A stretch of DNA of 64,000 nucleotides, from positions 2,496,001 through 2,560,000 of the forward strand of contig OZ245002.1 of assembly GCA_965223415.1 (NCBI GenBank), given 5' to 3'. The position numbers were made by a program, and so were the translations under genes. This DNA is from Myxococcota bacterium. Its GTDB lineage: Bacteria; Myxococcota_A; UBA9160; UBA6930. The notes beneath the pieces are model-generated. The model made no database searches. It was not told where the DNA came from and saw only the letters and a list, made by a program, of their open reading frames with translations. Positions 31,232-47,639 of this stretch are shown here, piece by piece. Position 1 is the first letter of the stretch. Every line of letters begins with the position of its first letter.

Positions 31232-31316
31232 TCGCGAGCCACCTGAGGTGGACCCAGGCAACCGCGCGTCGCAGCGACCTGCGGCGCCCGGCAAGCTGCA
31301 GCCGCTGATTGCGCGG
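31232..31316 (-). other. Degenerate attC site
   Basis: Minus strand GCGCAATCAGCGGCTGCAGC; shares the body GAGCCACCTGAG(G/T)TGGACCCAG with the attC at 32249. Confidence 0.5.
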
Positions 31317-31392
31317 CGCCGCCATGAGCCGCAGCAGAACGAGCGCGGTTCCCTGTCCTGCGGCCTCTCGCTGTGTGCGCGATCCTTGCGAG

Positions 31393-32235: not shown

Positions 32236-32248
32236 TCGCCGAGGCCCT

Positions 32249-32359
32249 GCCCAACGGGTAGGCGGCCCGAAGCTCGCTGAGCCACCTGAGTTGGACCCAG
32301 TGTACCACGCCAAGAGCGGAAGCAGCGGTTCCCCGGTCAGGTCCAACCCCTTGTTAGGC
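32249..32359 (-). other. attC site (L' box deleted)
   Basis: R'' GCCTAAC just after the cassette stop and R' GTTGGGC. Aligns with the attC body at 38544-38620 but lacks ~17 nt containing CTCAGCTG. Confidence 0.75.
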
Positions 32360-32365
32360 AGCTGC

Positions 32366-32860
32366 TCACTCGACTCGATAGATCAGCCAAGCCGAAAAGA
32401 CGATGAAGCCGACGCCGAGGCATGTAAGGAGGCCCAGTTGGAAGATGCCTGGGTTGAGCGAGATCACGCTGAGCCCGGTGACCAAGAGAGCACCGATCTC
32501 GACGAAGACTGCGAGTGGCACAACCGCATAGAGGTAGGGGTAGGGACCGCGGTCGCCGGTGCGCTCGACGCTTCGATTGCGTTTCAGTACGAAGACGGAG
32601 AAGAGAAGCATCGCGAGGCCGAGCGCCCCGCTGCAGGCCACCAAGGTTGTTTCAACGGCGACGCCAGTCTCGACTAACGCCGAGGGAACGAGAGAGAACA
32701 CCAACGCCATGCCACTCCAGCCGAGCATCTGGCGGAGAGCTAGACGGTCTCGTTCGCTGAATCCGTCTTGGGCACGGCGCTGAAGGGCTGCCGCAACTCC
32801 GGAGAACCCAGCTAGGGCTACTGCAATCTCGGCTATGACCTCGTAGGACTGTAGTTCCAT
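32366..32860 (-). CDS. Cassette-borne membrane protein
   Basis: 'IAEIAVALAGFSGV', about 5 TM segments, lower GC, stop adjacent to the attC. Confidence 0.8.
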   Translation of the reverse strand: MELQSYEVIAEIAVALAGFSGVAAALQRRAQDGFSERDRLALRQMLGWSGMALVFSLVPSALVETGVAVETTLVACSGALGLAMLLFSVFVLKRNRSVERTGDRGPYPYLYAVVPLAVFVEIGALLVTGLSVISLNPGIFQLGLLTCLGVGFIVFSAWLIYRVE

Positions 32861-32876
32861 CGGCTCGCGCAGCCGC

Positions 32877-33268
32877 CTTGTGTGTTCCGCCTAGCGCCAG
32901 ATTCGGGATAGGGTAGGTGTTTCGATCGGGGAGACCGTAGCTGCCTGAAGCCAGGTGAGCCTGAGAGTTGGATGAATCCCCCGTCCTTCTCGCCATGCCT
33001 TGAAGTATGCGAGGCCCGAGAGCCCGGATCTACAAAGTCGGTAGACGAGGATTCAGGGTCGGGCGACCGAGCGAGATTCTACACCGAGGAGGGAAACGAG
33101 CGGGCCGGGAATGGGGGGCTGGCCCAGGCCTTGGTTCGTCGGCGCAGCGCCGCGCGTGTGCGTCGAGGTGAAGGGCATCTACCACCTCGAGCCGTGTCTG
33201 TGGCCGGACGACGCAGCTCGGATCGAGGTGATGGTGGCGAACCCGCGAGCCACGAAGGATCTTGGCTC
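32877..33268 (+). pseudogene. IS110 remnant (left end, bridge-RNA region and transposase fragment)
   Basis: The non-coding part aligns with 37360-37500. The fragment 'ARVCVEVKGIY..EVMVANPRA' matches the transposase at 37531. Confidence 0.8.
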
Positions 33269-33291
33269 GGGTCAGCTGCAGCCGGTTAGGC
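33269..33291 (-). other. attC left half (R''-L'')
   Basis: GCCTAACCGGCTGCAGCTGACCC, overlapping the TAA stop of the DUF2442 gene. Confidence 0.75.
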
Positions 33292-33558
33292 GGCGCCCCT
33301 CTGCTTGGGCGGCGCGGGTGCGCCGCGGAGGAGGCCTTCCGCACTGAGGTCTTCATCCACATCCGGCCAGTGAATTCCGTGGCCACCACCACAGAGCTCC
33401 CACTTCTCGCGTTGCTCACGGGTGGCGTGCAGGAGCCGAGGGAACCAAGCGAGCGGAACAGAAATGGTGCGACCATCAGCAAGCGTCGCGTGAAGCGAGT
33501 CGTCATCGATTTCGACATCGATGATTCGCTCGCCCGCTCTAGGTTCCGAAGTAACCAT
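33286..33558 (-). CDS. DUF2442 family protein (putative TA component)
   Basis: 'LADGRTISVPLAWFPRLLHAT..GIHWPDVDEDLS'. Confidence 0.9.
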   Translation of the reverse strand: MVTSEPRAGERIIDVEIDDDSLHATLADGRTISVPLAWFPRLLHATREQREKWELCGGGHGIHWPDVDEDLSAEGLLRGAPAPPKQRGAA

Positions 33559-33775
33559 TCCAGGCCTCGAAGAGAGATCGTTCGTTGGATCGAATCAGCG
33601 CTTCGATCTGTCGCAGTTCCCGCGGGCCGAACCCGAGGTTTCGCGCCAACCCAACCGGAGCGAGCCAGAACTTCGCGGTTCGATCGTCGCGATCAACGTG
33701 AACGTGCGGAGGTTCGTTCGGCTCATGGCTGTAGAAGTATATCCGGTAGGGTCCGGACCGAAGAACCGTCGGCAT
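33539..33775 (-). CDS. DUF4160 family protein (putative TA component)
   Basis: 'MPTVLRSGPYRIYFYS.E..EPPHVHV..AKFWL'. Confidence 0.9.
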   Translation of the reverse strand: MPTVLRSGPYRIYFYSHEPNEPPHVHVDRDDRTAKFWLAPVGLARNLGFGPRELRQIEALIRSNERSLFEAWNGYFGT

Positions 33776-33855
33776 GGCTCACCGCAAGGTATCGGATTCC
33801 CAAGCGAAATCGCCTTGCGGCACCACCTCGCAGTAGGAGGGGGCCGAGGCACTAG

Positions 33856-35146
33856 CAGGCTGCGGAAAAACCCCGTGCGACGGGTCGAATCGGTTGGTAC
33901 AGGCATACCGGGGGGATGGAGATGCGCGGAACCGATCGAACGCAGTCCACGATGTTCAGCTACGTGTCGCCGGAGGCGCGTGTCCCCGCCGATCATCCAC
34001 TGCGCGTGACGCGGGAGATGACGAATCGCGCCCTGGTCCGGCTGGACGGGAGGTTGCGGAAGCTGTACTCGCGGACGGGTCGGCCGTCGATTCCGCCCGA
34101 GCACCTGTTGCGGGCCCTGCTGCTGCAGGTGCTCTACTCGGTGCGAAGCGAGCGGATGCTGATGGAGCAGCTCGAGTACAACCTGCTGTTCCGCTGGTTC
34201 GTGGGGCTCGAGATGGACGACCGGGTCTGGGACGTGACGGTGTTCACGAAGAATCGGGATCGGTTGCTTCGGGGAGAGATCGCGGAGGGGTTCTTTCAGG
34301 CCGTGTTGGCGGAGGCCCGCGAGGAGGGGCTTCTGTCGGACGAGCACTTCACGGTGGACGGCACGCTGATCGAGGCATGGGCGGGGCAGAAGAGCTTTCG
34401 GCCGAAGGACGAGGACCGGGGCGGCCGCGGGGGTGGACGGAAGGCGACGGAGCGGGACTTCCACGGTGAGCGTAGGAAGAACGACACGCACGCCTCGACG
34501 ACGGACCCGGAGTCCCGGCTCTACCGCAAGGGGAAGGGGAAGGAAGCGAAGCTGTGCTTCATGGGCCACGTGGTGACGGAGAACCGGCATGGCCTGGTGG
34601 TGGCGGCCAAGACGACGCTGGCCACGGGCACGGCGGAGCGCGAGGCCTCGGTGGCGATGGTGAAGCGGGTGCCACGCGGACGGCGATCGACGTTGGGCGG
34701 AGACAAGGGCTACGACACGGTGTCGCATGTCGAAGAGCTTCGAGAGCTGGGCGTGACCCCGCACGTCGCGCAGAACGACAAGGGCCGCCGCAGCGCGATC
34801 GATGATCGAACGACGACGCACGTGGGCTACGAGATCAGCCAGCGCAAACGCAAGGCGATCGAGCAGGTCTTCGGCTGGGGGAAGACGGTAGGCCCGATTC
34901 GCAAGGTGAAGCATCGCGGCAAGGAGCGGGTGGGCTGGATGTTCACGTTCACCCAGGCGGCCTACAACCTTGTGAGGATGAGGAACCTGCTATGCCCCAC
35001 GTAGCTTGTCGGGTCGAGTGGAGGGCCCCGTTGGCAGCGAGCCGGGCGTCAACCGGCGGCAAGGCCTCGATTCCGCGCTCCTTTCCTAGCCAAAGCGCCT
35101 CCAAGGCACCGTTCTCTGCGTACCATCGGCGTTCTTCCGCAGCCTG
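33856..35146 (+). mobile_element. IS5-family element
   Basis: Terminal IR CAGGCTGCGGAA / TTCCGCAGCCTG, with CTAG duplicated at 33852-33855 and 35147-35150. Confidence 0.92.
33922..35004 (+). CDS. IS5-family transposase
   Basis: 'GRPSIPPEHLLRA', 'VDGTLIEA', 'GDKGYD' and 'IEQVFGW'. Confidence 0.95.
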   Translation: MRGTDRTQSTMFSYVSPEARVPADHPLRVTREMTNRALVRLDGRLRKLYSRTGRPSIPPEHLLRALLLQVLYSVRSERMLMEQLEYNLLFRWFVGLEMDDRVWDVTVFTKNRDRLLRGEIAEGFFQAVLAEAREEGLLSDEHFTVDGTLIEAWAGQKSFRPKDEDRGGRGGGRKATERDFHGERRKNDTHASTTDPESRLYRKGKGKEAKLCFMGHVVTENRHGLVVAAKTTLATGTAEREASVAMVKRVPRGRRSTLGGDKGYDTVSHVEELRELGVTPHVAQNDKGRRSAIDDRTTTHVGYEISQRKRKAIEQVFGWGKTVGPIRKVKHRGKERVGWMFTFTQAAYNLVRMRNLLCPT

Positions 35147-35350
35147 CTAGGACCCGGGGCCAAAGACGGAGAGATACGAGTCTAGGGCTGCGCTGAGCCA
35201 GCTGTCGTCGAGCCGCCGCAACTCGTCGATTCGCTCCTCGGGTTGGAGAATGTCGAGAAGGAGCTTCCCGAAGGGCAATTCGGGCTTGGCATCCCAGGCA
35301 CTGCCCAGCGCCTCGAGGATCTCCGCTCGCTCCTCTTCGCGGTTGGACAC
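35147..35350 (-). CDS. Small cassette hypothetical protein (67 aa)
   Basis: 'ILEALGSAWDAKPELPFGKLL'; the stop codon lies in the IS5 CTAG target. Confidence 0.6.
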   Translation of the reverse strand: MSNREEERAEILEALGSAWDAKPELPFGKLLLDILQPEERIDELRRLDDSWLSAALDSYLSVFGPGS

Positions 35351-35420
35351 CCCGCCAGCCTACCCCTAGAAGGTTCGCTCGCTGGCGCCCGATCGCGTCC
35401 AACCTGTCCGCGTTCGCCAA

Positions 35421-35521
35421 GCCGCCTTGTACCTCTGATCCAGCCGGCCAAGGAACAACCCCAGGCTACCATGGCCGTTTGAAGGGTGCTTGGAGCCGTC
35501 AGCTGCAGCCGCTTGTTAGGC
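35421..35521 (-). other. attC site whose R' end is replaced by an IS110 left-end stub
   Basis: R''/L'' GCCTAACAAGCGGCTGCAGCTGAC. The other end reads GCCGCCTTGTACCTCTGA, identical to 37297-37314. Confidence 0.75.
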
Positions 35522-35528
35522 GCCGCGC

Positions 35529-36786
35529 GGTACGGTCCGGCCACATCCTTTACAGGAGTCCAGGGACATCGTTTACACCCGGGGGATGCCCTGGATGGAA
35601 ACGGATGCAAGGAAGCAGCGGCAGGCGTTCGTTCGCGACTACGAGAGCGGTCAGTGGTCGATGAGCGAGCTGTGTCGGCGGTATCGTGTCTCCCGGCCCA
35701 CAGGCTACAAGTGGCTCGGGCGCTTCGAGTCGGAGGGGGAGGCCGGCCTGGAGGAGAGGTCCCGTGCGCCGGCTCGCTGCCCGCACAGGACGCCAGCGAG
35801 CGTGGAGCGCAAGATCCTGGCCCTTCGCGCCGAGTACGGCTGGGGTGCGAAGAAGATCTTGCAGGTGCTCGAGCGCCGGTACCCGAAGATGCAGAGGCCC
35901 GCGCGAAGCACGGTGAACGCGATCCTCGATCGCCACGGCAAGCTGCGCAAGAACCGACGTCGGAAGAAGTGGTCGCATCCCGGCGCTGCGTCGCTGTCGA
36001 CCGACCACCCGAACCAGGTGTGGCCCGCGGACTTCAAGGGCCAATTCAAGATGCGCAACGGTCGCTACTGCTACCCGCTGACCGTGACCGACCACTGCAG
36101 CCGCAAGCTCCTGATGTGCCGCGGGCTGCACTCGATTCGCACCGAGGGCGTGAAGCCGCTGTTTCGGGAGCTCTTTCGCGAGGTCGGACTTCCCGAGGCG
36201 ATTCGCACCGACAACGGTGCCCCCTTCGCATCGACCGGGATCCACGGCCTGTGCGAACTCAACGTGTGGTGGATGAAGCTCGGCATCGTGCACCAGCGCA
36301 TCCGTCCTTCGAGCCCCCAACAGAACGGGCAGCACGAGAGGATGCACAAGGACCTCAAACGCGAGGCGACCCGCCCGCCTGGCGCGAACCTCAACGTCCA
36401 GCAGCGGATGCTCGAGGCCTTTCGTCGACGCTACAACGAGGAGCGGCCGCACGAAGCACTCGGTGGAGCGTTTCCCGAGGAGCGCTACGAGCCCTCGCCG
36501 CGGCCGTACCCCAGTCGCCTCTCGCCGCCGGAGTACCCTGCGCAGATGGAAGTGCGCCGCGTGAGCCGGGCCGGGACGTTTCGGCTGAAGGCGAAGCAGC
36601 CCTTCCTGAGCAACGCACTGGCCGATGAGTACATCGGACTTGAAGAGATCGGCGACGGCATCTGGAGCATCGTCTACTACGAGACGATCCTGGGCCGCAT
36701 CGACGAGCGCAGCAGGAAGATCACCGGAGTCTGAGAGGTGTAAACGATCTACCTGGACTTGTGTAAAGGATCAGCCGGACCGGTCA
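35529..36786 (+). mobile_element. IS481-family element
   Basis: Long imperfect IRs (CGGTCCGGC..ATCCTTTACA..GTTTACACC and its reverse complement); inserted between a cassette stop codon and its attC. Confidence 0.85.
35586..36734 (+). CDS. IS481-family transposase (HTH + rve)
   Basis: MPWME start, 'WPADFKG', 'RTDNGAPF' and 'QQNGQHERMH'. Confidence 0.93.
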   Translation: MPWMETDARKQRQAFVRDYESGQWSMSELCRRYRVSRPTGYKWLGRFESEGEAGLEERSRAPARCPHRTPASVERKILALRAEYGWGAKKILQVLERRYPKMQRPARSTVNAILDRHGKLRKNRRRKKWSHPGAASLSTDHPNQVWPADFKGQFKMRNGRYCYPLTVTDHCSRKLLMCRGLHSIRTEGVKPLFRELFREVGLPEAIRTDNGAPFASTGIHGLCELNVWWMKLGIVHQRIRPSSPQQNGQHERMHKDLKREATRPPGANLNVQQRMLEAFRRRYNEERPHEALGGAFPEERYEPSPRPYPSRLSPPEYPAQMEVRRVSRAGTFRLKAKQPFLSNALADEYIGLEEIGDGIWSIVYYETILGRIDERSRKITGV

Positions 36787-36790
36787 GGCC

Positions 36791-37249
36791 CTAGAACCTG
36801 GAGCTGAGCCAGGTCGCATTCCTGGCCAACAGAAAACCCACGAGAACCCTTGCGAGAGGAGACACCAGGTACCCGATGAACGTCGTCGAACTCATCCTCT
36901 CAGGAGCTGACATGGCCATTGAAAATAGAACTACGAACGCAGAGAGAAGCGAAGCAGAGCCTGCAGCCATGAAGAAGATCCCGAGCAGAACGACGCCGAG
37001 GGAGAGCCACTGCGCCCCCGGGGCAACGCTCGGCGGGTTGTGCTCTGGCATGCTGAATGCGACGTAACGCGAGAGCACCAGGAGGACGACTCCTGGAATC
37101 CAGTTGCCAGCTAGCGTGGGCCAGGAGTCCAACAGCATCGACGAGAGGGGCCTCACAAGATCCTCGGACTGGCCCATGACCAAGTAGTAACTGGAAGCCT
37201 CGTGGGCCCATTCGGCGACACCGGACGCAAGAAAGAACAGGCCGAGCAA
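36791..37249 (-). CDS. Cassette-borne membrane protein (start uncertain)
   Basis: Four hydrophobic helices with an internal repeat 'LLG(L/I)FF(L/M)A.G'; lower GC. Confidence 0.65.
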   Translation of the reverse strand: MLGLFFLASGVAEWAHEASSYYLVMGQSEDLVRPLSSMLLDSWPTLAGNWIPGVVLLVLSRYVAFSMPEHNPPSVAPGAQWLSLGVVLLGIFFMAAGSASLLSAFVVLFSMAMSAPERMSSTTFIGYLVSPLARVLVGFLLARNATWLSSRF

Positions 37250-37309
37250 CGCCGTCCCAGTCCGCGCAACTTCGGTCAGCTTGAACCCCCCTTCGCGCCG
37301 CCTTGTACC

Positions 37310-37515
37310 TCTGAGCAGGCTCTTCGGGCCTGAGTGAGACTCCGAGATGGGTTCCCGGGAAAGGCCGTCGCTGCCTGAAGCCAGAGAGCTTGTCCGTTAG
37401 ATGGGCCTCCCGCCCTCGTCACCCATGCCGTGGAGTATCCGAGGCCCGAGAGCCTGCGTCTACAAGGTCCGTAGGTGAATGTGCAGGGTCGGGAGACCCG
37501 GGTCCCAGCTTATCA
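37310..37515 (+). ncRNA. Putative bridge RNA
   Basis: Guides CGCTGCCT (37369), TGTCCGTTAG (37391), GGAGTATC (37432) and TACAAG (37461) match the target and donor ends. RNA boundaries are approximate. Confidence 0.8.
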
Positions 37516-37530
37516 CGGGGAGGAGAGACC

Positions 37531-38526
37531 TTGAAGAAGTGTCATTACGTGGGCGTGGACGTCGGGGCGAAGGAGCTCGTCGTCGCCATCGACCGGAACG
37601 GAACTCGCGAGGGCGGGCTGGTCTTTGCGAACGATCCCAAGGGCCACCAGAGGCTGATTCGGTGGGCCACGAAGGGGAATGCGACGGCGCGCGTCGTCCT
37701 GGAATCGACCGGGGTGTACGGCCTCGACCTCGCGTTCGCGCTTCACCGTGCGAAGGCGTCCCAGGTGATGGTGGCGAACCCGCGGGCCATTGCCGCGTTC
37801 GCCAAGGCATCGCTTCAACGCTCCAAGACGGATGCGCTCGATGCGGAAACGATTCTCGAGTTCGGAATGCGCATGGAGTTTTCCGCCTGGACTCCGCCGG
37901 ACCCCCGAATTCTGGAGGTACGGGCCCTCTCCCGCCGCGTGGAGGCTCTGAGCAAGACCGTGACGCAGGAGAAGAACCGGCTCCATGCCAACGACCAGAG
38001 CGAGGAGCTCAGTGAGTTCGTGAAGCAAGACATCCGCGAACTGATCGAGCTCCTGGAGGGGCGAATCGATCGGCTGCGCAAGCAAGCGTTGAAGGTGATC
38101 GAGCAGAGCCCCGAGCTCGCCAGAGACTTCGGCCACATCACATCGATCAAGGGTATCGCCGACGCAGCCGGCATCCAGTTGCTCGCCGAGCTAGGCACCT
38201 TGCCCAAGGACATGACGACCCGGCAATGGGTCGCGCATGCGGGCCTCGACCCCCGACAGTTTCAATCGGGCACCTCTGTGCACAAGCCAGCTCGCATCAG
38301 CAAGACCGGCAACGCCCACCTTCGCCGCGCACTCTTTCTTCCTGCGATGGTCGCTGCACGCTGGGAACCGAACGTGAAGGCCTTCTACGAGAAGCTGCTC
38401 TCCAAGGGCAAAACCAAGATGCAAGCACTCGTCGCCGTCATGCGGAAGCTGCTCCACGCCATCTACGGCATGCTCCGCCACGACCAGGACTTCCTTGGCG
38501 AGAAATTCTTCGCCACGAAGGGTTGA
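37531..38526 (+). CDS. IS110 recombinase
   Basis: DEDD residues (GVDVG, LEST, KTDALDA) and catalytic QSG; TTG start after GAGGAG. Confidence 0.95.
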   Translation: MKKCHYVGVDVGAKELVVAIDRNGTREGGLVFANDPKGHQRLIRWATKGNATARVVLESTGVYGLDLAFALHRAKASQVMVANPRAIAAFAKASLQRSKTDALDAETILEFGMRMEFSAWTPPDPRILEVRALSRRVEALSKTVTQEKNRLHANDQSEELSEFVKQDIRELIELLEGRIDRLRKQALKVIEQSPELARDFGHITSIKGIADAAGIQLLAELGTLPKDMTTRQWVAHAGLDPRQFQSGTSVHKPARISKTGNAHLRRALFLPAMVAARWEPNVKAFYEKLLSKGKTKMQALVAVMRKLLHAIYGMLRHDQDFLGEKFFATKG

Positions 38527-38543
38527 CGACGAAGGGAGTATCT

Positions 38544-38646
38544 AACGGACAGGCGGCTCAGCTGCTGGGCAGGCCCCGAAGCTCACTGAGGCGCCTGGGT
38601 GGAACCCAAGAGTACCACGCCCCAGTTGGAACGCGCGGTTGCCCGG
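38544..38646 (-). other. attC central and right part (split by three IS)
   Basis: AACGGACAGGCGGCTCAGCTGCTGGGCA...TTGCCCGG continues at 40022 as GTCAGCTGCAGCCGCT. Confidence 0.82.
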
Positions 38647-38724
38647 AGGGTATAGGGAGGTCAGCTCCTTGGAGAACAGCCACCTTGGCTGTGTTCCAAC
38701 AAACACTCCCCAAGGAGACTGACC

Positions 38725-39774
38725 ATGACGACAGAGTACTTCGCTGGGATCGACTTGCATCGCACCGTGATCCAGATCTGCGTGCTGGATGCGCGGGGTG
38801 AGAAGATCGCCGAGGAGAGGATCCGCTCCGAGAGCCTTGAACAGGGCCTCGGGGTCGTGGAGCGGCTGAAGTTCTTCGGACCCCATTGCCGCGTAGCCGT
38901 CGAGGCGTTGGGCCTCAACCGGTGGTTCGTCAACGCCTGCCGAGAGGCGCAGCTCGACGTTCTGGTCTGTGATCCGCGCAAGCTCGACCTGAAGAAGCTC
39001 GGCAAGAAGACGGACCGGCGAGATGCAGCCGAGATTGCACGCCGGCTCTGGCTCGGTGATCTGGATCGGGTGGCAACGACCTACTACCCGAGCGACGAGG
39101 AGTACGGGAGGAGGAAGCTCCTTCGGGTCCGCCACCGCCTCGTCCAGATGCGCCAACAGGCCGTGAACCAGCTCCGGGGCTTCCTGAACGCCTACCGGAT
39201 TCCCGCTCCCACGAGCGCGCTCTATACCAAGCCGAGCCGGGAGAAGCTCCGCACCGTCACCCTGCCGACCCTGGAGATGCAGACCGCCTTCAAGGCCCTG
39301 CTCCAGGTGCTCGATAGCCTGCAGGGCCAGGTGCTGGCTCTCGATCGGGAGATCCGACGGATCGGGCGAGAGGATCCCGACGTCCAGGCCCTCGAGCAGG
39401 AGCTCCCGAGCATCGGGACGCAATCGGCTGCCACGCTGCTCGCCGAGATCGGCGACCCGCACCGATTCCGAGGCCCCCGTGCGGTCTCGGCCTTCGCCGG
39501 CTTCACCCCCAAGGTGAACCAGTCAGCCGACCACGCCCACCACGGCCGCATGACCCGCCAAGGCCAGGCCGAGCTCCGCTGGATCGTCAGCCAATGGGCG
39601 GTTCGCCTGATGAAGGACGACCCGTTGGTTCGTGCCTGGGCGAAGACGATGCGGACCCGCGTCCACAAGAACAAGGTCCGCATGGCCTTGGCTCGCAGAC
39701 TCCTCGTCAGCGTCTGGGTCACGCTCACCCGCGGCGAGGCCTTCGATCTCCGGAGGTGCCTTGGCATGGCGTAG
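38725..39774 (+). CDS. IS110/IS1111 recombinase
   Basis: GIDLH, VEA, KTDRRDA and NQSA; AAGGAG RBS. Confidence 0.94.
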   Translation: MTTEYFAGIDLHRTVIQICVLDARGEKIAEERIRSESLEQGLGVVERLKFFGPHCRVAVEALGLNRWFVNACREAQLDVLVCDPRKLDLKKLGKKTDRRDAAEIARRLWLGDLDRVATTYYPSDEEYGRRKLLRVRHRLVQMRQQAVNQLRGFLNAYRIPAPTSALYTKPSREKLRTVTLPTLEMQTAFKALLQVLDSLQGQVLALDREIRRIGREDPDVQALEQELPSIGTQSAATLLAEIGDPHRFRGPRAVSAFAGFTPKVNQSADHAHHGRMTRQGQAELRWIVSQWAVRLMKDDPLVRAWAKTMRTRVHKNKVRMALARRLLVSVWVTLTRGEAFDLRRCLGMA

Positions 39775-39779
39775 CCCCG

Positions 39780-39995
39780 CTCCCCCAGGACCCCTTCTCG
39801 CTTGTGTTCCAACGAAGACGGTAGGCGGGCAGCTGACTGCGGCCCATGAGCCCTTGGCCCCGATTCACCACCGTCGCCCCGAACCCCTCATTGAGCCCAC
39901 GAGGCCGACAACGCGTTTGGACTGAACCCGAACCCGCAGGGACGCAAGCCGATTCCGTTGGAGGACACCACCAAGACCCACACGTGCTTCGCGAT
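39780..39995 (+). ncRNA. Putative seekRNA/bridge RNA
   Basis: GCAGCTGAC (39829-39837) is the reverse complement of the right flank GTCAGCTGC. CGTTT and CCCTC segments are complementary to the element ends. Confidence 0.65.
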
Positions 39996-40035
39996 CATTG
40001 GAGTTGACACTCCCTAAACGGGTCAGCTGCAGCCG

Positions 40036-40805
40036 CTCCTATGATGCTAGGCATGGTTAGATGAAGCGGCCGGTGAGCAGAGGCACTGCCCACCGGCCTT
40101 TCTCAACCGGAGCGGAAGACCGGTAGCCGTCGGGTCCCTCGTGAGACCGTTAACCAGCTTGGGTCTCCGCTCCACAGCCGCAGCGAAGCTCGAACGATCG
40201 CCTGGGCCTCTTGCGAGAGCCCGTAACCAGGAGCCCGAGTTCGTTGCACCTTGGAGTCTACCATGGGGATGAACGTCGGGATCGACGTCTCGAAACACTC
40301 GCTTGATTGGACCTCAGGAAGCAAGGGGAAGCTTCAGCACACCCGCAACGAGCCGCGGGCCATCGCCCACCTCCTGCGTCGGATGGCCGAGCTCGACCCC
40401 GAGCGCATCGTCGTCGAGTCGACCGGGGGCTACGAGCGCCCGGTGGTCCAGAAGCTCGCCGAGGCGGGACTCCCGGTCGTCGTCGTGAACCCGGTTCGCG
40501 TTCGGCGCTTCGCCGAAGGCCTGGGGCTGCTGGCGAAGACGGACGCGGCAGATGCGCAGGTGCTCGCACTCTACGGCGAGAAGGCCGGGCCGCCGATCCG
40601 GCCGATTCCGATGGGGAGAAGCCGTCTGCTGGCCGATCTCATCGCACGGCGCCGCCAGCTCGTCTCGATCCTGGTGGCCGAGAAGGGTCGGCGGGAAGCG
40701 GCGCCTCGAGCTGCGCAGGCCTCGATCACGAGGATTCTCCGTGCTCTCGAGCGCGAGGTCGACGGCATCGACCAGCGCATCCAGAAGGCGATCGAAGACG
40801 ACCTC
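40036..40805 (+). mobile_element. IS110 element, 3'-truncated by IS21, with 5' bridge-RNA region
   Basis: Starts at the CT after GCAGCCG. Guides GTAGCCG (40123), TAACCAG (40151) and AGGAG (40229). Confidence 0.8.
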
Positions 40806-40835
40806 TGTCGAGGGACGTCATCTCTTGCGCGCTAA
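40263..40835 (+). pseudogene. IS110 recombinase, N-terminal half only
   Basis: GIDVSK, VESTGGYE and KTDAADA; the frame is broken at the IS21 end (40806). Confidence 0.9.
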
Positions 40836-40940
40836 GAGGACGGCTAGTTTTGCGCACCCCCCTGGGTTGATGTTCGGTTCTTCCTTCTTCTCTTCCGCTC
40901 TCCGAAGGAGAGCACGGCCGTCAGGCCGCCCTCTGGGGCC

Positions 40941-41741
40941 TCAACGCTGGGCGCTTTGCCCCGCGGCCTGCTCGAGCTCGCGGAGCCGGTAGCTCCGCCC
41001 CGAGATGTTGAGCACCTGGCTGTGGTGGAGGAGGCGATCGAGGATGGCGGTGGCCAGCACCTCGTCGCCCGCCAGCACCTCGGGCCAGTCGGCGATGCCC
41101 TTGTTCGTGGTGATCAGGATCGAGCCCCTCCCATAGCGGTAGGAGACGAGCCGGAAGAAGAGGCTCGCCTCCTGGCGCGTCATGGGCTCGAAGCCGACCT
41201 CGTCGATGACGAGGAGCGCCACGTTCATGTGCTTGCGCCGCCGCAGCCGTTGCGGGCTGATCTCGGCGTCGCGCTTGAGGGCCGCCAGCAGGTCCTCGAG
41301 GCGATGGAAGGCCACGGAGAAGCCGTTCTCCACGGCCCGCACCCCCAGGGCCACCGCCAGGTGGGTCTTGCCCACTCCCGGCGGACCCTGGATCAGCAGA
41401 CTCTCCTTGGCCCGGATCCACGCGCAGGTGCCCAGCGTCTCGATCCGGCTCCGCTCCACACTCGGCTGGAAGGCGAAGTCGAAGTTGCCGAGGGTCTGCC
41501 CCGTGGGAAGGCCCGAGAGACGGAGCGAGGTCTTCATCCTCCGCTCCTCGCGGTGCTGCAGCTCGGCCTCGAGCAGCAGGTCGAGGAAGCGGTGGGGCAC
41601 GAGGTCGTCCTTGGTCGCTCGGGCCAGCTCCTCGCCGATGTGCTCGGCCGCGTGATGGAGGCCGAGGCGCACGAGCCGCTCGCGGGTCGGGTCGAGATCC
41701 ACCTTGCCGCCCTTCTTGGGCACCGGGTTTCCCGCCGTCAT
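40941..41741 (-). CDS. istB: IS21 helper ATPase
   Basis: GPPGVGKT, LLVIDEVG, ITTNK and ILDRLLH. Confidence 0.95.
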   Translation of the reverse strand: MTAGNPVPKKGGKVDLDPTRERLVRLGLHHAAEHIGEELARATKDDLVPHRFLDLLLEAELQHREERRMKTSLRLSGLPTGQTLGNFDFAFQPSVERSRIETLGTCAWIRAKESLLIQGPPGVGKTHLAVALGVRAVENGFSVAFHRLEDLLAALKRDAEISPQRLRRRKHMNVALLVIDEVGFEPMTRQEASLFFRLVSYRYGRGSILITTNKGIADWPEVLAGDEVLATAILDRLLHHSQVLNISGRSYRLRELEQAAGQSAQR

Positions 41742-43024
41742 CGCGCCACCTCCGCCAGATCGGCATAGAGGTCGATCGGCCGCTGCTCCGGCTCCATCGC
41801 CCACAGCTCCTGGAGGCGTCGACCCATGCGCCCGAGCGGTACGGGCGCCTCCACCCCCTCCGTGCTCGGCCCCTCGTAGTGGCTCGGGTCCAGCAGCAGG
41901 CGGCTTCGCGTGTGGCGCGGGTGCGCGGCCACCACCGAGCCCTCGGCCCAGACCTGCACCTGCCGGGCGCAGCCGCGCACCTCGACGCTCTGCTCGACGA
42001 AGCGGAAGGGGACGCTGTAGGTACGCCCCTCGAAGCGCACCGTGGCGTCGCGCCCGACACGTCGCATCACGGCCAGGTCGAAGGGCTCGGGAAGCCGCTC
42101 GGGCAGGGCCCCGAGATGGGGCTTCTCCGCCTCCCACGCCTGGAAGACCGTCGTGCCCGTCGCCGGGCACTGCCGCCGGTGGCTCGAGCGCGCCACCTGG
42201 CCGTCCGTCCACGCTTGCAGCGACTCCAGGCTCTCGTGCTCCCGCCGACGCGGATCGAAGCCCCGCCGGTGCCCCAGGATCCGACGCTCCACCTTCCCCT
42301 TCTCCTGCGGCTGGCGGGGACGGGTGGCGTCCACGTGGAAGCGAAGGGCCCCGGCATAGCTCGCGTAAGCCGGGTTCACCGTCCCCCATGGCCCCGCCCC
42401 CTTCGCCACCGCTGTCTTCACGTTGTCGACCCGCAGCACCGCCGGCACCCCGCCCAGCCGCTCGAAGGCCCGGTTGTGCACGTCCAGCCACGCCAGCGTG
42501 TCCGCCCGCTCCGACCACACCACCGCTTCTCGCCGCGAGTGCGAGAGCACCAGGTGGAAGGCATGCAGGTCCACCTCCTGGCCCCCGATCCGCACGCCCG
42601 GAAACTCGCCCCAGTCCACCTGACCCTGCGCCCCGGGCGGTGTCTCCACCCGACGCCGGCTCCGCACCTTCGGTCTCGGGAACCGGGCCCGCACGTACCG
42701 CTGCACGCTCTTGGAGCTCCCCGTGTACCCGTGCTCCTCCACCAGGAACTCGTGAAGCTCCTGCAGGTTCACGCCACGGCCTCCCGAGCTCGCCTCCAGC
42801 CACTCCGCGATCACCTCGTGGACCGCCTCGGCCAGGAAGGGCTTCCCGCTCCGGCCGTCTCGCGCCCCCTCCGCCAGCCGCTTCAGCCGGTAGCGCACCG
42901 CGCTCTCCCGGATCCCCAGCTGGCGGGCGATCTCCCGGTTCGAGCACCCCCGCTCGTGCAGCACTTCGATCGTCATCACTTCCTCCTGCCTCAGTCGCCG
43001 CTGCCCCACGCCCCCCTCCCTCAC
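41738..43024 (-). CDS. istA: IS21 transposase
   Basis: HTH, 'ETPPGAQGQVDWG', 'DNVKTAV' and 'KGKVER'. Confidence 0.95.
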   Translation of the reverse strand: MREGGVGQRRLRQEEVMTIEVLHERGCSNREIARQLGIRESAVRYRLKRLAEGARDGRSGKPFLAEAVHEVIAEWLEASSGGRGVNLQELHEFLVEEHGYTGSSKSVQRYVRARFPRPKVRSRRRVETPPGAQGQVDWGEFPGVRIGGQEVDLHAFHLVLSHSRREAVVWSERADTLAWLDVHNRAFERLGGVPAVLRVDNVKTAVAKGAGPWGTVNPAYASYAGALRFHVDATRPRQPQEKGKVERRILGHRRGFDPRRREHESLESLQAWTDGQVARSSHRRQCPATGTTVFQAWEAEKPHLGALPERLPEPFDLAVMRRVGRDATVRFEGRTYSVPFRFVEQSVEVRGCARQVQVWAEGSVVAAHPRHTRSRLLLDPSHYEGPSTEGVEAPVPLGRMGRRLQELWAMEPEQRPIDLYADLAEVAR

Positions 43025-43274
43025 GGGGAACGTGCCGCGCAGCGGCTCAACAGGAGGTGCGCAAATCTACGTGTCCTCTTAGCCCTCGAATATCACGTCC
43101 TGCGACAGTGCCGTCTGGTGCCGCCGCAGTTGTGCGTTCGAGTCCCCACCGCGTTTGCGAAATTGAGAACTGACCCTCAGGCTCGCGGAAGGAGGGTCAC
43201 TCGTAGCTTCCCGCCTAACCGCGAATGCCTGATCCAATAGGCTGAAAGGAATTCGAACCCCCGACCCTTGTATC

Positions 43275-43495
43275 TACTCCACTCACCCGGATCTGGTTCA
43301 ATAGGGTCAGAACGGGTTTCGGGGGAGGGTCGCCGTCCCGACCCAGAGGCATGGTCCTCGTACCTGAGAGAGGCGCCCTCGCCCGATCTCGCAAGCTCGA
43401 ACGGTATCCCGAGGCAGCGGTCTGCCGCTCGTCCTCGCATGCACAAGGAAGAGCACCGAGGTCGGCACCGAGGCTCCCGACGCTCCCGTTCGAGG
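43275..43495 (+). ncRNA. Putative bridge RNA
   Basis: Guides CCCGACCC (43337), ACCTGAG (43362), ACGGTATC (43401) and CACAAG (43442). Confidence 0.78.
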
Positions 43496-43507
43496 AGGAA
43501 GAAGGGG

Positions 43508-44683
43508 ATGCGCTTCGTTGGGATCGACATCGCCTCGGAAACGCACGTCGTCGCGATGGTGGGAGAAGACGGGGGCGTGCTGCTGAAGCCGGTCTCGTTC
43601 CGGGAGGAGGCGGCTGGCTACGCACTGCTGTGGGAGAAGCTGGGAGGCCCCGAGGACACGCTCGTAACGCTCGAGGCAACGGGGCACTACTGGAAGAACC
43701 TGTTCGCGGCGCTTGCGGCGAGGGGTTTTGCCGTGGCGTTGATCAACCCGCTGCGCAGTCGCCGGTTCGCACAAGAAGACTTGGAGCGGACGAAGACCGA
43801 CGCAATCGATGCGCTCGGCCTGGCTCGCTTCGGAGCACAGAAGCGTCCGAGGGTGACTCGCCTTCCGGACGCGGCGACAGAAGAGCTTCGTGAGCTCGTC
43901 CGGCTCCGCGATCGTCTGGTTCAGGACTTCGGGGACTGCACCCGGCGGCTCCACCGCATGGTCGATCTGGGCTTCCCAGAGCTCAAACGGTACGTGAAGC
44001 ACCTCGATAGCCAGCTGTCGACGGGGCTGCTGCGGGAGTACCCCACGGCAAGAGCCTTCCAGGAAGCCTCTGTGGGGCGCGTGGCAAAGCTTCGCTACGA
44101 CGGTCGTCATCGTGTAGGCGATGCGCTCGCGAAGCAGCTCGTCGAGGCTGCGCAGAACTCGGTGGGCGCCCATCATGGCCCGGCCTACCAGGTGCAGGTG
44201 CGTTACCTGTGCGAAGACATGGACGTCTTGCGCAAGAGACTCGGCGACATCGACCGCGACATCGCGGATCAGCTATCCGCGCACGAGGTCGGAAGCTTGC
44301 TGACGACGATCGATGGGATCGGGCCGACGACGGCAGCACGGCTCATCGCGGAGCTCGGTGACCCGGCCGACTTCGCCACGGCCGCAGCCCTCGCCGCCTA
44401 CGTGGGCGTCGTTCCAGGCCTAAAGCAGTCGGGCAAGCGCCAAGGCAAACGCGGGAACCTCTCGCCAATCGGTCACGCGCGGCTACGTCGCGCACTGTGG
44501 ATGCCGACGTTGGTCGCCGTTCGGAAGAACCCCTGGGTGCGGGCCCACTACGAGCGGCTGCGCGACAACGGCAAGCCCGCAAAGGTCGCGCTGATCGCCT
44601 CGACGAGGAAGCTGCTCATCGCGGTTCACGTCGTGGCGAGGACCCGCAAGCCCTTCGTTCCACAGCTAGAGACCAACCCATGA
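43508..44683 (+). CDS. IS110 recombinase
   Basis: GIDIA, LEATGHY, KTDAIDA and KQSG. Confidence 0.95.
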   Translation: MRFVGIDIASETHVVAMVGEDGGVLLKPVSFREEAAGYALLWEKLGGPEDTLVTLEATGHYWKNLFAALAARGFAVALINPLRSRRFAQEDLERTKTDAIDALGLARFGAQKRPRVTRLPDAATEELRELVRLRDRLVQDFGDCTRRLHRMVDLGFPELKRYVKHLDSQLSTGLLREYPTARAFQEASVGRVAKLRYDGRHRVGDALAKQLVEAAQNSVGAHHGPAYQVQVRYLCEDMDVLRKRLGDIDRDIADQLSAHEVGSLLTTIDGIGPTTAARLIAELGDPADFATAAALAAYVGVVPGLKQSGKRQGKRGNLSPIGHARLRRALWMPTLVAVRKNPWVRAHYERLRDNGKPAKVALIASTRKLLIAVHVVARTRKPFVPQLETNP

Positions 44684-44773
44684 ACCGAGAAAACCGGGCC
44701 CAGCCCCTTGCTGAAGATCACGGTATCTCAGGTTCGAAGCCTGGGGGTCGGGGGCTCTCCCACCCCACGCGTC

Positions 44774-45322
44774 CTAGTCGAGGAATGCCCACAAGAGCCG
44801 TCGGCTCCTCGCGTCCAGGCTCCCCGGGCTCGACACCAGGTAGAGATCCCCGGCCACGTCCTTGATCAGGAGGCCGCCGCCGGGCATCTCGCGGGGCCAC
44901 TCGTCCCGGAGGGTCTGGAAGCTGCGCTCGCCCTGGGCCGTGCGCACGCGGAAGGTGCGGATCTCGATCTCCTCGTCCACGTCGAGCACCGCCTGGATCT
45001 CGAGCACGAAGCCCGCCTCGAGCAAGGCCGTGCCCAGCGCCCGCTGGGCCGTGTAGGGGAGGTCGGTGAGGTCGCGCACGAGCGCCACCTCCTCCTCGTC
45101 CCGGTCACGGAGCGAGACGTAGCGCGACGGCTTCGACCAGGGGAAGCAGCGCACGGGCCGCACCGAGCAGGTGCGGTCGGCAGTGCGCGCCCAGAGCTGG
45201 CCGTCGGAGCCACGCCACAGCTCGAGGCCCGCCATCGGGCGCCGCGGAGCCTGGTGCGCCACGGCGCGTCCGCGCCGGCTGGGTGCGAGGGTCTTCGGCT
45301 CTCGTCTCTGCGGGTCGTTCAT
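44774..45322 (-). CDS. DUF1854 domain protein
   Basis: 'VRPVRCFPWSKPSRYVSL' and 'LIKDVAGDLY'; downstream of the ABC transporter. Confidence 0.82.
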   Translation of the reverse strand: MNDPQRREPKTLAPSRRGRAVAHQAPRRPMAGLELWRGSDGQLWARTADRTCSVRPVRCFPWSKPSRYVSLRDRDEEEVALVRDLTDLPYTAQRALGTALLEAGFVLEIQAVLDVDEEIEIRTFRVRTAQGERSFQTLRDEWPREMPGGGLLIKDVAGDLYLVSSPGSLDARSRRLLWAFLD

Positions 45323-45353
45323 GGTTGTCCCTCGTTTCTTTCGTTCGTCTCGT

Positions 45354-47639
45354 TCATGCCTGGAGCTGCTGCTGGAGCTGCCACAGGTGTTGGAAGGTCC
45401 CCTCCGGCTTCGCCATCAGCTCGCCGGGCGTTCCACTCTCGGTGAGCCGGCCGTCCTCGATCACGAAGATGCGGTCGGCCCGCCGCAGGGTGGAGAGCCG
45501 GTGGGCGATGGCGAACACGGTGCGGCCCTCGGTGAGCCGCTCGAGCGCCTCCTGGATCTTGTACTCCGTCTCGGTATCGACGGCGCTGGTGGCCTCGTCG
45601 AGCACCAGGATGCGCGGATCGTGCAGGATGGCCCGCGCGATCGAGATCCTCTGGCGCTCGCCGCCGGAGAGCGTCTGCCCCCGCTCGCCCACCATCGTCT
45701 CGTAGCCGTTCGCGAGCTTGCAAAGGAAATCGTGGGCGTTGGCGGTGATCGCCGCCTCCACCACGTCGTCCTCGGTCGCGCCTGGCAGCCCGTAGCGGAT
45801 GTTCTCCATCACCGTGCCGTGGAAGAGGTACGGATCCTGGAGGACCATCCCGAGCTGACGCCGGAAGCTCCCGGTGTCGAGCCGGCGCACGTCGATGCCG
45901 TCGATGCGCACCTGCCCGCCCGTCACGTCGTAGAAGCGGGCCAGCAGGTTCGTCACCGTCGTCTTCCCGCCGCCGGAAGGCCCGACGAGACCGATCATCT
46001 CGCCCGGCTCCACCGCGAAAGAGACGCCCTGGATCACCTGGCGCACCCCGTCGTAGCCGAAGGTCACGTTCTCGAACTCGACCCTGCCCTCGACGGGCTC
46101 GAGGCGCACCGGGCAGCCGACGTCGACCACCTGGGGCTCGGTGTCGAGCACCTCGAAGATGCGGTGGGCGGAGCTGGTGGCGCGGTTCATGATGCGCGCC
46201 ATCTGCCCGATGATCTCGATCGGCTGCACGAACATGGTCATGTAGAGCAGGAACGCGACGAAGGTCCCGGACGTGAGCGTCGCGCCCATCTCCGAATCGC
46301 CGGGGATGACCCGCGGCAGCGCGAACACCCACACCAGCACCACCATCCCGCGCACGGCCAGCATCAGCGTCGGCCAGAACGAGGTCCACACCTCGTGGAT
46401 GCGGTTGAACTCGTCGGTCACGTTGTGGTTGCGCGCGCCGAAGCGCTCTTTCTCCCTCTCCTCCTGATGGAAAGCTTTCACGACCTTCATGCCGGGGATC
46501 GTGTCCGACACCACGTCGGTCACCGAGCTCCACTTGCGCCAGGCGCGCAGGAAGAGCTTGTTCATGCGCCGGCCGTGCCAGTAGACCCAGAGGCACAGGA
46601 AGGGCACCGGCAGGGTCATGATCAGCCCGAGCTTCCAGTCCAGGTGGATCAGCACCGCCGAGAGGCCGAGCAGCATCACGATGGAGAGCGACACGTCCAC
46701 GATGCCGAGCGCCAGGAACTCCCAGAGCCGGTCCGTATCCGCGGTGACCCGCGTGATGAGGCTTCCGGTCTTCTTCCTCGAGTAGAAGGAGAGCGAGAGC
46801 TTCTGCAGGTGCTCGTAGAGCTCGGTGCGCAGGTCTCGCGCCACGTGCTCGCCGAGCACGGCCATCCAGCGAAGCCGCGCCCAGGCGGCGAGCTGCCGCA
46901 GCAGGTAGCTCGCGGCGATCGCCACCACGGCGTACCAGGCGATCTGCTGCACGTCCGCCAGGGTCTTCGCCCCGTCCTGCACGGGCCGGATCACCTCGTC
47001 GACCAGGTAGCCGGTGAGGTAGGGCGGCACGAGCGAGAGCGCCGTCAGGACCGCCGCCGACGCCAGGCCGAAGATCACCTGCCCGCGGTAGGGCCGCAGG
47101 TAGCCGAGCAGCCGCCACACGACCGCCAGGTCGTTGCCGGCGACCAGCGCCTGGGCCTCCCGGATCGGGCCGGCCACGCTGTCCGCGTACTCCTCGTCCG
47201 GATCCGCCGGTGCGGGCACGGGCGAGCCGTCGAGGTCCCGCTCGATCAGGAACTGCAGGTTCTCCATCGCGCGACGCTGGCGGTGGGTGAAGCGGACGCG
47301 GGCGAGCGCCGGCTCCCCGGGCTCCCGCAGGAAGCGCAGGGTGTTGCAGGTGAGGCCCGGATCGAGCCGCACGGCCTGGATCGCCTCGCGGGCGAAGGTC
47401 TGCACGTCGAGCCGCCCGCCGAGGGCGCGGGCCACGGCCACGTGGCGCGGCCCGAGGGCGACCCACGACTCGGTGAGCTGGAGGCTGCCGTCGAGGTCCG
47501 CCAGCGCGTAGAGCTGGACGGGATCGCCGCCCCAGCCGTCCTCGATGGCCTCGCGCACGGCGCGCGGCATCGAGACGGGCTGGTCGGTGTATCGCTCGAG
47601 GATCTTGCGGTCAGTCGAGTCGGTCGGGTGCGCGAGCAT
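45354..47639 (-). CDS. ABC exporter (TMD + NBD) with N-terminal extension
   Basis: GPSGGGKT, LSGGERQR, LDEATS and AHRLST. Confidence 0.93.
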   Translation of the reverse strand: MLAHPTDSTDRKILERYTDQPVSMPRAVREAIEDGWGGDPVQLYALADLDGSLQLTESWVALGPRHVAVARALGGRLDVQTFAREAIQAVRLDPGLTCNTLRFLREPGEPALARVRFTHRQRRAMENLQFLIERDLDGSPVPAPADPDEEYADSVAGPIREAQALVAGNDLAVVWRLLGYLRPYRGQVIFGLASAAVLTALSLVPPYLTGYLVDEVIRPVQDGAKTLADVQQIAWYAVVAIAASYLLRQLAAWARLRWMAVLGEHVARDLRTELYEHLQKLSLSFYSRKKTGSLITRVTADTDRLWEFLALGIVDVSLSIVMLLGLSAVLIHLDWKLGLIMTLPVPFLCLWVYWHGRRMNKLFLRAWRKWSSVTDVVSDTIPGMKVVKAFHQEEREKERFGARNHNVTDEFNRIHEVWTSFWPTLMLAVRGMVVLVWVFALPRVIPGDSEMGATLTSGTFVAFLLYMTMFVQPIEIIGQMARIMNRATSSAHRIFEVLDTEPQVVDVGCPVRLEPVEGRVEFENVTFGYDGVRQVIQGVSFAVEPGEMIGLVGPSGGGKTTVTNLLARFYDVTGGQVRIDGIDVRRLDTGSFRRQLGMVLQDPYLFHGTVMENIRYGLPGATEDDVVEAAITANAHDFLCKLANGYETMVGERGQTLSGGERQRISIARAILHDPRILVLDEATSAVDTETEYKIQEALERLTEGRTVFAIAHRLSTLRRADRIFVIEDGRLTESGTPGELMAKPEGTFQHLWQLQQQLQA

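Follow-up and report, generated by a model that had tools for sequence, protein, structure and literature searches.

Three IS110-family elements in one integron attC site of a Myxococcota genome, probably at separate guided sub-sites

In this work, we analyzed a stretch of 64,000 nucleotides of a Myxococcota bacterium genome (contig OZ245002.1, positions 2,496,001 to 2,560,000; hereafter the window, and G000 for the genome), in which a single integron recombination site (attC) of approximately 130 nt, lying on the minus strand at 37297-40037, is interrupted by three elements of the IS110 family of insertion sequences (IS), here called A, B and C. Very probably, the locus is a displaced piece of an integron cassette array whose attC was entered independently by the three elements, each at its own guided sub-site. 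The attC is the working part of integrons, and IS insertions decide whether the cassettes still move. Coordinates are those of the window unless given as genome positions, and hyphens within motifs mark element junctions.

Results

Organization of the interrupted site

Read along the plus strand, 37297-40037 consists of GCCGC, element A with CT at both ends, AACGGACAGGCGGCTCAGCTGC...TTGCC, element B with CGG at both ends, GTCAGCTGCAGCCG, and element C, which opens with CT. The rejoined order put forward in the original prediction (GCCGC-CT...TTGCC-CGG...-CT) matches the sequence exactly, and the three elements are as divergent as it had proposed, their transposases being 25-28% identical in pairwise comparisons. 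Pfam searches found DEDD_Tnp_IS110 (PF01548) in all three open reading frames (ORFs) and Transposase_20 (PF02371) also in A and B; for C, PF01548 lies in the 5' half and PF02371 in a displaced 3' half described below, so that, counting both halves, all three carry the DEDD RuvC-like N-terminal and the Tnp C-terminal domains of the family. The transposase genes of A, B and C all run antisense to the cassettes.

The outer part of the R' core (37297-37303, minus strand) reads GTTAGGC on the minus strand together with the AAC at 38544-38546, and the same motif is uninterrupted in family members at genome positions 2773786-2773814 and 2075299-2075327. The attC body (38544-38643, minus strand) comprises that AAC, a 6-nt spacer, the L' box (GCGGCTCAGCTG, 38553-38564) and a central variable part, as delineated by the family alignment, nhmmer, the fold of the rejoined site and a profile match described below. 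At 40022-40037 (minus strand) follow the L'' box, GTCAGCTGCAGCCG, and the CT core that it has in common with element C; this box is identical in three other sites of the family, where it continues into (G/T)GTTAGGC. On the other side of R', a cassette-like ORF of 152 aa (36791-37249, minus strand) has no Pfam match and starts 48 nt past R' in cassette orientation; judging by its position and strand, it probably represents the cassette that follows the attC downstream.

The interruption is not due to chance, because the 100-nt piece between A and B was found again beside A and/or B at two further loci, with 91% and 81% identity. Nor is the locus an assembly artefact, since short-read contigs from runs X1 and X4, which may be the genome's own source, span the end of A, the attC body and the start of B (38519-38669) as well as the end of B, L'' and the start of C (40008-40800). 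In the sequencing runs examined, no short-read contig joined across an excised element.

The interrupted sequence as an attC

The genome encodes an integron integrase (2062393-2063328, minus strand; TIGR02249, 449.7 bits against a cut-off of 265) approximately 470 kb from the site. It is adjoined by same-family attCs, and the cassette ORFs point away from it. Searched with a profile of the repeat, G000 yielded 15 pieces, representing approximately 11 sites, confined to three clusters: beside the integrase (2064408-2079454), in the window (31236-40038) and at genome positions 2773678-2778104. Only one strong copy (2773683-2773811) is free of any interruption; it is bounded by GCCTAAC and GTTAGGC and forms an imperfect hairpin of 129 nt, in which an R box of 7 bp is followed by an asymmetric spacer of unpaired bases (2 and 6 nt), then by an L box in which a single base is extrahelical, and by a variable end.

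G051, a relative from the same taxonomic family that carries the same attC family, has a textbook integron. To the left of its integrase (176261-177265, plus strand) lie 15 same-family sites (E < 1e-4) spaced 450-700 bp apart with minus-strand ORFs between them; the whole locus (L077/L078, G051:C1:160252-177265) thus holds at least 15 homogeneous attCs of approximately 130 nt, three of them with C-like elements. The consensus fold of ten uninterrupted G051 sites has 38 pairs, 12 of which show compensatory changes, and contains the R box, the unpaired spacer, the L box with one extrahelical base and the variable end. A covariance model built from the G051 sites scored two natural uninterrupted sites of G000 at 46.1 and 45.9 bits. 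A strict motif-plus-fold scan of the genome returned just nine attC candidates, most of the true sites being either interrupted or imperfect in their cores, and an Rfam E-value scan of 33000-47000 gave no match.

After excision of A, B and C in silico, the rejoined site of 131 nt folded into the same long hairpin, with 20 of the 26 arm pairs formed, and matched the G051 profile over positions 10-147 (E 7.4e-10). Its R', rejoined across A, is GTTAGGC; its R'' is GTTAGCA on the plus strand, that is TGCTAAC on the top strand, which departs from the consensus at position 1. These are nonetheless cores of the R'' RYYYAAC and R' GTTRRRY type, and the other family sites read GCCTAAC/GTTAGGC. The L'' and L' boxes, the unpaired spacer and the extrahelical base on the '' arm were found in the natural and rejoined folds and in the G051 consensus, while linkage of a cassette array to an integrase was found elsewhere in the genome and in G051, the cluster of the window itself having no integrase.

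In the integrons of both G000 and G051, the plus-strand GTTAGGC end faces the integrase and comes first after each cassette ORF, and the extrahelical L-box base is on that same arm. From the integrase-facing end and the arm bearing this base it follows that the attC top strand is the minus strand of the window, with R' on the left, split by A, and R'' on the right, beyond C. The prediction of a minus-strand attC with R' GTTAGGC, L' and L'' is thus borne out by the integrase, the G051 array, the covariance model and the folds.

Element A, within the R' core

Element A (37302-38543, plus strand, 1242 bp) is of the IS110 type, with the core CT at both ends, a long left end of 229 nt, a right end of 17 nt and a gene for a transposase of 331 aa (37531-38526, plus strand; PF01548 and PF02371). 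Its ends are fixed by all six genomic copies, which are 100% identical over exactly 1242 bp, and with these boundaries A splits the R' core as had been claimed. Three of the six copies lie at attC R' cores, of two attC types: two split the R' core of this family of approximately 130 nt and one splits the R' of a different attC of approximately 57 nt, after the second cassette ORF of the main integron. The right end of A (…GAGTATCT) rebuilds GTTAGAT beside the attC, which is still a GTTRRRY core.

Relatives of A were found in 15 of 401 genomes sampled from the phylum (G000 included) at E <= 1e-50, and a species-wide scan added three more; G051 gave no A-like match. Among the relatives of at least 55% identity, the right junction reads CT-AAC in 8/8 loci. 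Seven of these eight loci, all but L088, were assessed for an attC. It is clear at L015, both by its fold and by a score of 30.1 bits with the covariance model, which aligns across the A-type junction there, and a second site in the same array scores 41.3 bits. Clear short attCs of approximately 60 nt were found at L091 and L092, an imperfect one at L016, and at L090 an arm of the family followed by the end of the contig. Other targets were found for relatives of 52% identity or less and for L017 (59%, a partial match).

Upstream of the transposase gene, the left end contains the predicted target and donor loops of a bridge RNA in the layout of the IS110 group. Of the two predicted target guides, CGCTGCCTGA (37369-37378) is in the sense of the left side of the target plus the core, with two wobble positions, and is followed by a 4-bp stem-loop; GCTTGTCCGTTAG (37388-37400) is antisense to the core plus the right side over 13 nt, with one wobble. 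The predicted donor guides come next, with GGAGTATC (37432-37439) in the sense of the right end of A and TACAAGGT (37461-37468) antisense to the core plus the left end of A. None of 500 shuffles, wobble allowed, reached the core-spanning match. Elsewhere in the window, 137 nt at 32932-33068 are 76% identical to positions 61-197 of the left end of A, the bridge-RNA region, and are probably a relic of an older A-like element.

Element B, at the inner edge of L''

Element B (38644-40021, plus strand, 1378 bp) has CGG at both ends and encodes a transposase of 349 aa (38725-39774, plus strand, Pfam). Its short left end of 81 nt, long right end of 247 nt and subterminal inverted repeats, TAGGGAG(T)GTCA(G/A)CTCC at 38653-38668 and 40000-40016 (9 nt and 5 nt from the ends; 7-17 bp is the range given for the IS1111 group in PMC11208160), give it the architecture of the IS1111 group. 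The ends were fixed by four copies, two intact and two interrupted by other IS, and the placement of B beside L'' recurs in its other copies: all four copies in G000 lie at ...CC-CGG...CGG-GTCAGCTGCAGCCGCT(G/T)GTTAGGC, in four different attCs. This left junction recurs within an attC of G021, approximately 95 nt after GCCTAACGGAC, in a truncated B relative of 73% identity, and a rearranged B remnant in G424 is also in an attC. Two uninterrupted sites of the family have no CGG at the position of B, which may explain why these two are empty.

Relatives of B occurred in 2 of the 401 phylum-sample genomes and in 7 of 193 genomes of the order, only two of them, both truncated, exceeding 70% identity. 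A tblastn search of a plasmid collection with B gave nothing above 32% identity among 2352 matching records. The one candidate guide, GCAGCTGAC(T) at 39829-39838, lies in the right end and is antisense to the 9-10 nt to the right of the insertion point. A seekRNA would have a top-strand match 5' of a bottom-strand match, and the top-strand match at 39829-39838 alone was found.

Two further observations concern B. The 10-mer GTGTTCCAAC occurs at 38690-38699 and at 39804-39813, that is, in both of its non-coding ends. In addition, one B copy contains an IS of approximately 2.5 kb (ORFs of 541 and 341 aa) at genome positions 2072659-2075181, with an 8-bp overlap of B positions 31-38; the same IS is present at 2438994-2441367 and 2779542-2781915, beside other attC clusters.

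Element C, one base from R'', and its break by an IS21-family element

The window contains the 5' part of element C (40036-40805, plus strand), an IS110-type element present as a single copy, with a left end of 227 nt, a right end of 25 nt and the N-terminal 181 aa of its transposase (40263-40805, plus strand; PF01548). After 40805 it is interrupted by an IS21-family element (40806-43107, minus strand; istA 41738-43024, istB approximately 40941-41741; Pfam IstB_IS21, rve and Mu-transpos_C_2), of which the genome holds at least 18 full copies. The 6-bp duplication GACCTC at 40800-40805 is found again at genome positions 2436783-2436788 beside another IS21 copy, and there the 3' 406 bp of C (2436789-2437194) contain the Transposase_20 part and the terminal CT, followed by GGTTAGCAGGC; with R'' (GTTAGCA) this piece spans 2436789-2437201. 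The R'' end is thus 99 kb upstream of the window and, as the 3' half of C is displaced, R'' is absent from the window, which retains R', L', the central part and L''. The placement of C between L'' and R'' is therefore upheld as to position, and relatives at five loci lie alike, with the qualification that C is truncated at 40805 and its R'' is 99 kb away.

The two IS21 copies that hold the halves of C (40806-43107 in the window and 2434481-2436782 in the genome) are approximately 99 kb apart in the same orientation, and their outer flanks have no matching duplication. The layout X-IS21-C3'...C5'-IS21-Y fits recombination between IS21 copies, and looks like the result of a circle of approximately 100 kb having entered through IS21 homology, or of some equivalent rearrangement mediated by IS21.

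C relatives were found in 10 of the 401 phylum-sample genomes (G000 included) at E <= 1e-30. Five loci with 50-65% identity have the element at ...GCAGC(C/G)(G/C)-CT...CT-TGTT(A/G)G, one base from the R'' core: one in G083 (64%), three in G051 (63-65%, in three attCs of its array) and one in G168 (50%). Three loci of approximately 46% identity, whose ends were not located, were left out of this position count; eight C-like copies in G012 (42%) are at an unrelated target, and a metagenome scan with the N-terminal half of C gave 40 loci, all of 46% identity or less.

The left end of C is predicted to fold into two stem-loop domains, with the target-loop guides (40123-40130 and 40149-40158; GTAGCCGT and GTTAACCAGC) occupying the two sides of the first internal loop and the donor-loop guides (40194-40201 and 40229-40234; ACGATCGC and AGGAGC) those of the second. 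Together with the unequal ends and the order of the guides, this two-domain fold and the covariation between guides and targets place C in the IS110 group, again with a predicted RNA. When the base after the core of the target is G (G000), the right target guide is CCAGC, and when it is T (G083, two of the G051 elements and G168), the guide is CAAGC; the left guide is AGCGCC in G083, against the target AGCGC-C, and AGCC(G/A) in the others, against AGCCG.

Guides and positions taken together

When exact matches anywhere were compared with shuffled sequences, scores were weak for A, B and C, and the non-coding end of A matched the site of B as well as its own; the assignment of guides consequently draws on layout and covariation instead. 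A and B occur together in a second attC (genome positions 2774317-2779343), with 81% identity in its body and unrelated outer flanks, which indicates that stacking arose at least twice. The anatomy of the locus, the flanks of the copies, the positions across genomes and the complementarity and covariation of guides and targets were all observed.

Neighboring elements

More attCs of the same family, whole or partial, lie at approximately 31236-31317, 32235-32373, 33255-33295 and 35443-35527, with an IS5-like transposase (33916-35004) and a transposase of the IS481 family (35586-36734) interspersed among them; the region 31236-35527 is an eroded cassette cluster without an integrase. On the other side, a fourth IS110-family element, D (43247-44746, plus strand, left boundary uncertain within 43247-43258; Pfam and flanks), is present in five copies, has a different target and does not belong to the attC. 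Its left flanks resemble the reverse complement of a tRNA T-arm (GGATTCGAACCC) and its constant right end contains GGTTCGAAGCC; an ARAGORN search of 42900-45000 found no tRNA.

Discussion

The results presented here point towards a piece that was displaced from the cassette array of a chromosomal integron and has no integrase within the window, and in which each of the three elements would have been excised as a circle and would have recombined at a core of a few bases, CT in the case of A and C and GG or CGG in that of B, directed by an RNA guide from its own non-coding end. Guided circle-type recombination of this kind has been demonstrated for relatives (PMC11208160, PMC11187229), and the same recombination chemistry is presumed for A, B and C. 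If expressed as predicted, the RNA of A and C would be a two-loop bridge RNA encoded upstream of the transposase gene, whose target loop would pair with both strands around the CT core in the attC and whose donor loop would pair with the joined ends of the element. The target of A would be GC-CT-AACGG, that is, the R' core GTTAGGC plus its inner flank, 2-4 nt away from where the integrase crossover takes place; that of C would be GCAGCCG-CT-(G/T)GTTAG, the end of L'' plus R''; and B would recombine at CC-CGG-GTCAGCTGC, on the inner edge of L'', presumably by means of a seekRNA from its right end. The insertion points of A and B are 100 nt apart and those of B and C 14 nt apart, and the sub-sites overlap by at most 2-3 nt, so that each insertion spares the targets of the others and the elements can stack. 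In the order of events that we favor, the IS21-family element would have inserted into C later, and recombination between IS21 copies would have moved the 3' half of C with R'' by 99 kb. Insertion of B and C detaches R'' and L'' from the remainder of the attC, which should disable the hairpin.

Several results weigh against this explanation. Regarding the attC, the fold energies of the rejoined and the natural site are modestly better than those of shuffles on the top strand (z -2.0 to -2.6, in a genome of 71% G+C), the rejoined bottom strand folds with z -0.6, and the covariance model gives weak matches on the uncut window (best 7.2 bits); the proposed excision and folding yielded the hairpin and the profile match at E 7.4e-10. 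Regarding the positions, three of the six A copies are at look-alikes without a recognizable attC (CAC-CT-AACGG, GCT-CT-AAGGG and GCCGC-CT-AACGG), A relatives L087 and L089 have no visible attC, and C relatives L021 (G068, 56%) and L022 (G268, 44%) have no adjoining GTT core. A is thus not exclusive to attCs, and tabulating the flanks of other copies separated B, with 4/4 copies at the same position, from A, with 3/6 copies at an attC R' and 3/6 at look-alikes. Regarding the guides, the folds of the non-coding ends are no better than those of shuffles (z -0.8, -0.4 and +0.5), the match of C with its own target is marginal against shuffles (0.06 with wobble allowed and 0.09 for exact matches), the left guide of G168 mismatches its target, the match of B, GCAGCTGAC(T), is not above shuffles (0.23 and 0.15, likewise), and no full-length relative of B was found among the 401 phylum-sample and 193 order genomes. 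The claim that each element carries non-coding segments matching its own sub-site consequently stands for A, by the order of the guides and the 0/500 shuffles, and for C, by fold and covariation, whereas for B the match of 9-10 nt remains at the level of shuffles. As to the notion of separate niches, each lineage keeps its position in other copies and genomes, as predicted, although A also inserts elsewhere, and a partitioning of the attC boxes among the recombinases would be an evolutionary reading of this pattern.

For B, the absence of a significant guide pair in its right end raises the question of whether it recognizes the L box by protein or DNA structure instead of an RNA guide. The subterminal repeats contain GTCAGCT, letters of the L'' box, the left end at 38659-38666 is identical to GGTCAGCT in the target, and CGG is missing at the position of B in the two uninterrupted family sites. 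On the other hand, every IS1111-group element tested in PMC11187229 relies on a seekRNA encoded downstream, in the non-coding region, the architecture of B matches theirs, and the perfect 9-nt antisense match abuts its insertion point; recognition without RNA seems improbable to us, if worth keeping in mind.

A general IS sink, that is, an insertion-tolerant region where three elements piled up without sub-site specificity, would account for the IS5-like, IS481-family and IS21-family elements and the fourth IS110 element within the 14 kb around the site, and for the IS21 and the IS of approximately 2.5 kb found inside B or C copies. It is already contradicted by the junctions of A, B and C, which are base-identical in other copies and conserved across genomes, and IS21 and element D have other targets; we regard it as very unlikely. 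Very little credit can be given to the possibility that the repeat of approximately 130 nt is a palindrome of the repetitive extragenic palindromic (REP) or miniature inverted-repeat transposable element (MITE) kind. REP sequences are indeed targeted by IS110-family elements (PMC11208160, PMC11187229), the window has no integrase and the fold z-scores are modest, but the repeat is limited to three clusters, one of which adjoins a genuine integron integrase, is regularly arrayed alongside the integrase of G051 with one ORF per unit, and has RYYYAAC and GTTRRRY ends and the extrahelical base on the expected arm. Finally, that a single co-occupation was copied as an A-attC-B block by segmental duplication, as the same order of A, 100-nt body and B at 2774317-2779343 might suggest, is scarcely tenable, given elements that are 100% identical around attC bodies that are 81% identical, unrelated outer flanks, and an IS21 inside B and no C at the second locus.

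That IS1111-group elements target attCs was already known, as the original prediction had stated, and the literature agrees. ISKpn4, ISPst6 and ISPa25 are described as inserting at a common position, at one end of particular attCs, and as using a seekRNA encoded in the non-coding region downstream (PMC11187229); IS1111-attC elements are reported near the attC 5' end, antisense to the cassettes and specific for site and orientation (PMC3001079); and ISPa21 is common in class 1 arrays (PMC11616780). The elements studied here resemble this group (ISPa21, ISPst6, ISKpn4 and ISPa25) in their IS110-superfamily DEDD transposase and attC target; B and C lie near the 5' end in antisense, while A is antisense as well but lies at the 3' end, in R'. 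They differ from it in that the members compared in those sources are at one position, in contrast to the three positions found here, and in that A and C are IS110-type elements with an upstream guide. In IS621, the long left end carries a target loop and then a donor loop, with left guides that match the top strand in sense, right guides that are antisense and a CT core in each (PMC11208160), and the predicted RNAs of A and C have exactly that layout, judged here from sequence; IS621 targets REP elements, unlike A and C, which target integron attC sub-sites. Group IIC-attC introns also home to attCs near the 5' end in antisense (PMC3001079); they share the attC homing but are retroelements with a different mechanism, none of which was seen here, and their homing makes the attC a shared landing pad.

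In the literature searched, which left the primary IS1111-attC descriptions outside, no description was found of IS110-type elements at R' or at several positions within one attC; the stacking at three positions in one attC and the R' specialist are new here. The supplement of PMC11208160 contains natural IS110 targets with a ...CTTGTTA(G/T)... motif, which might be unannotated attC cores, a lead only.

Sedentary chromosomal integrons carry homogeneous attC repeats, the arrays of Vibrio cholerae repeats (VCR) in Vibrio being an example. The integron of G000 is like them in its clade- or species-specific, conserved attC family of approximately 130 nt, and unlike them in that it is scattered over three clusters and heavily eroded by IS. 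A wider scenario, which we consider unlikely for the time being, is that an RNA-guided guild of IS110-family elements diversified onto the sub-sites of one structured recombination site and that the integron serves as a vehicle for the A clade, which sits in the crossover core of R'. If true, the GTTAGAT rebuilt by A would be predicted to keep the upstream attC competent for the integron integrase, and A would head the cassette that follows, mobile by cassette excision and capture.

Altogether, our results suggest that IS110-type elements, beyond the IS1111-attC group, specialize on attCs, including the R' core where the integrase cuts. The locus would be a natural example of bridge RNAs retuned to adjacent sub-sites of one structure of approximately 130 nt, with guide/target covariation across genomes, and its natural guide/target pairs could be used to test the rules by which bridge RNAs recognize their targets. 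It is likewise relevant to the question of how IS may erode, or ride on, chromosomal integrons.

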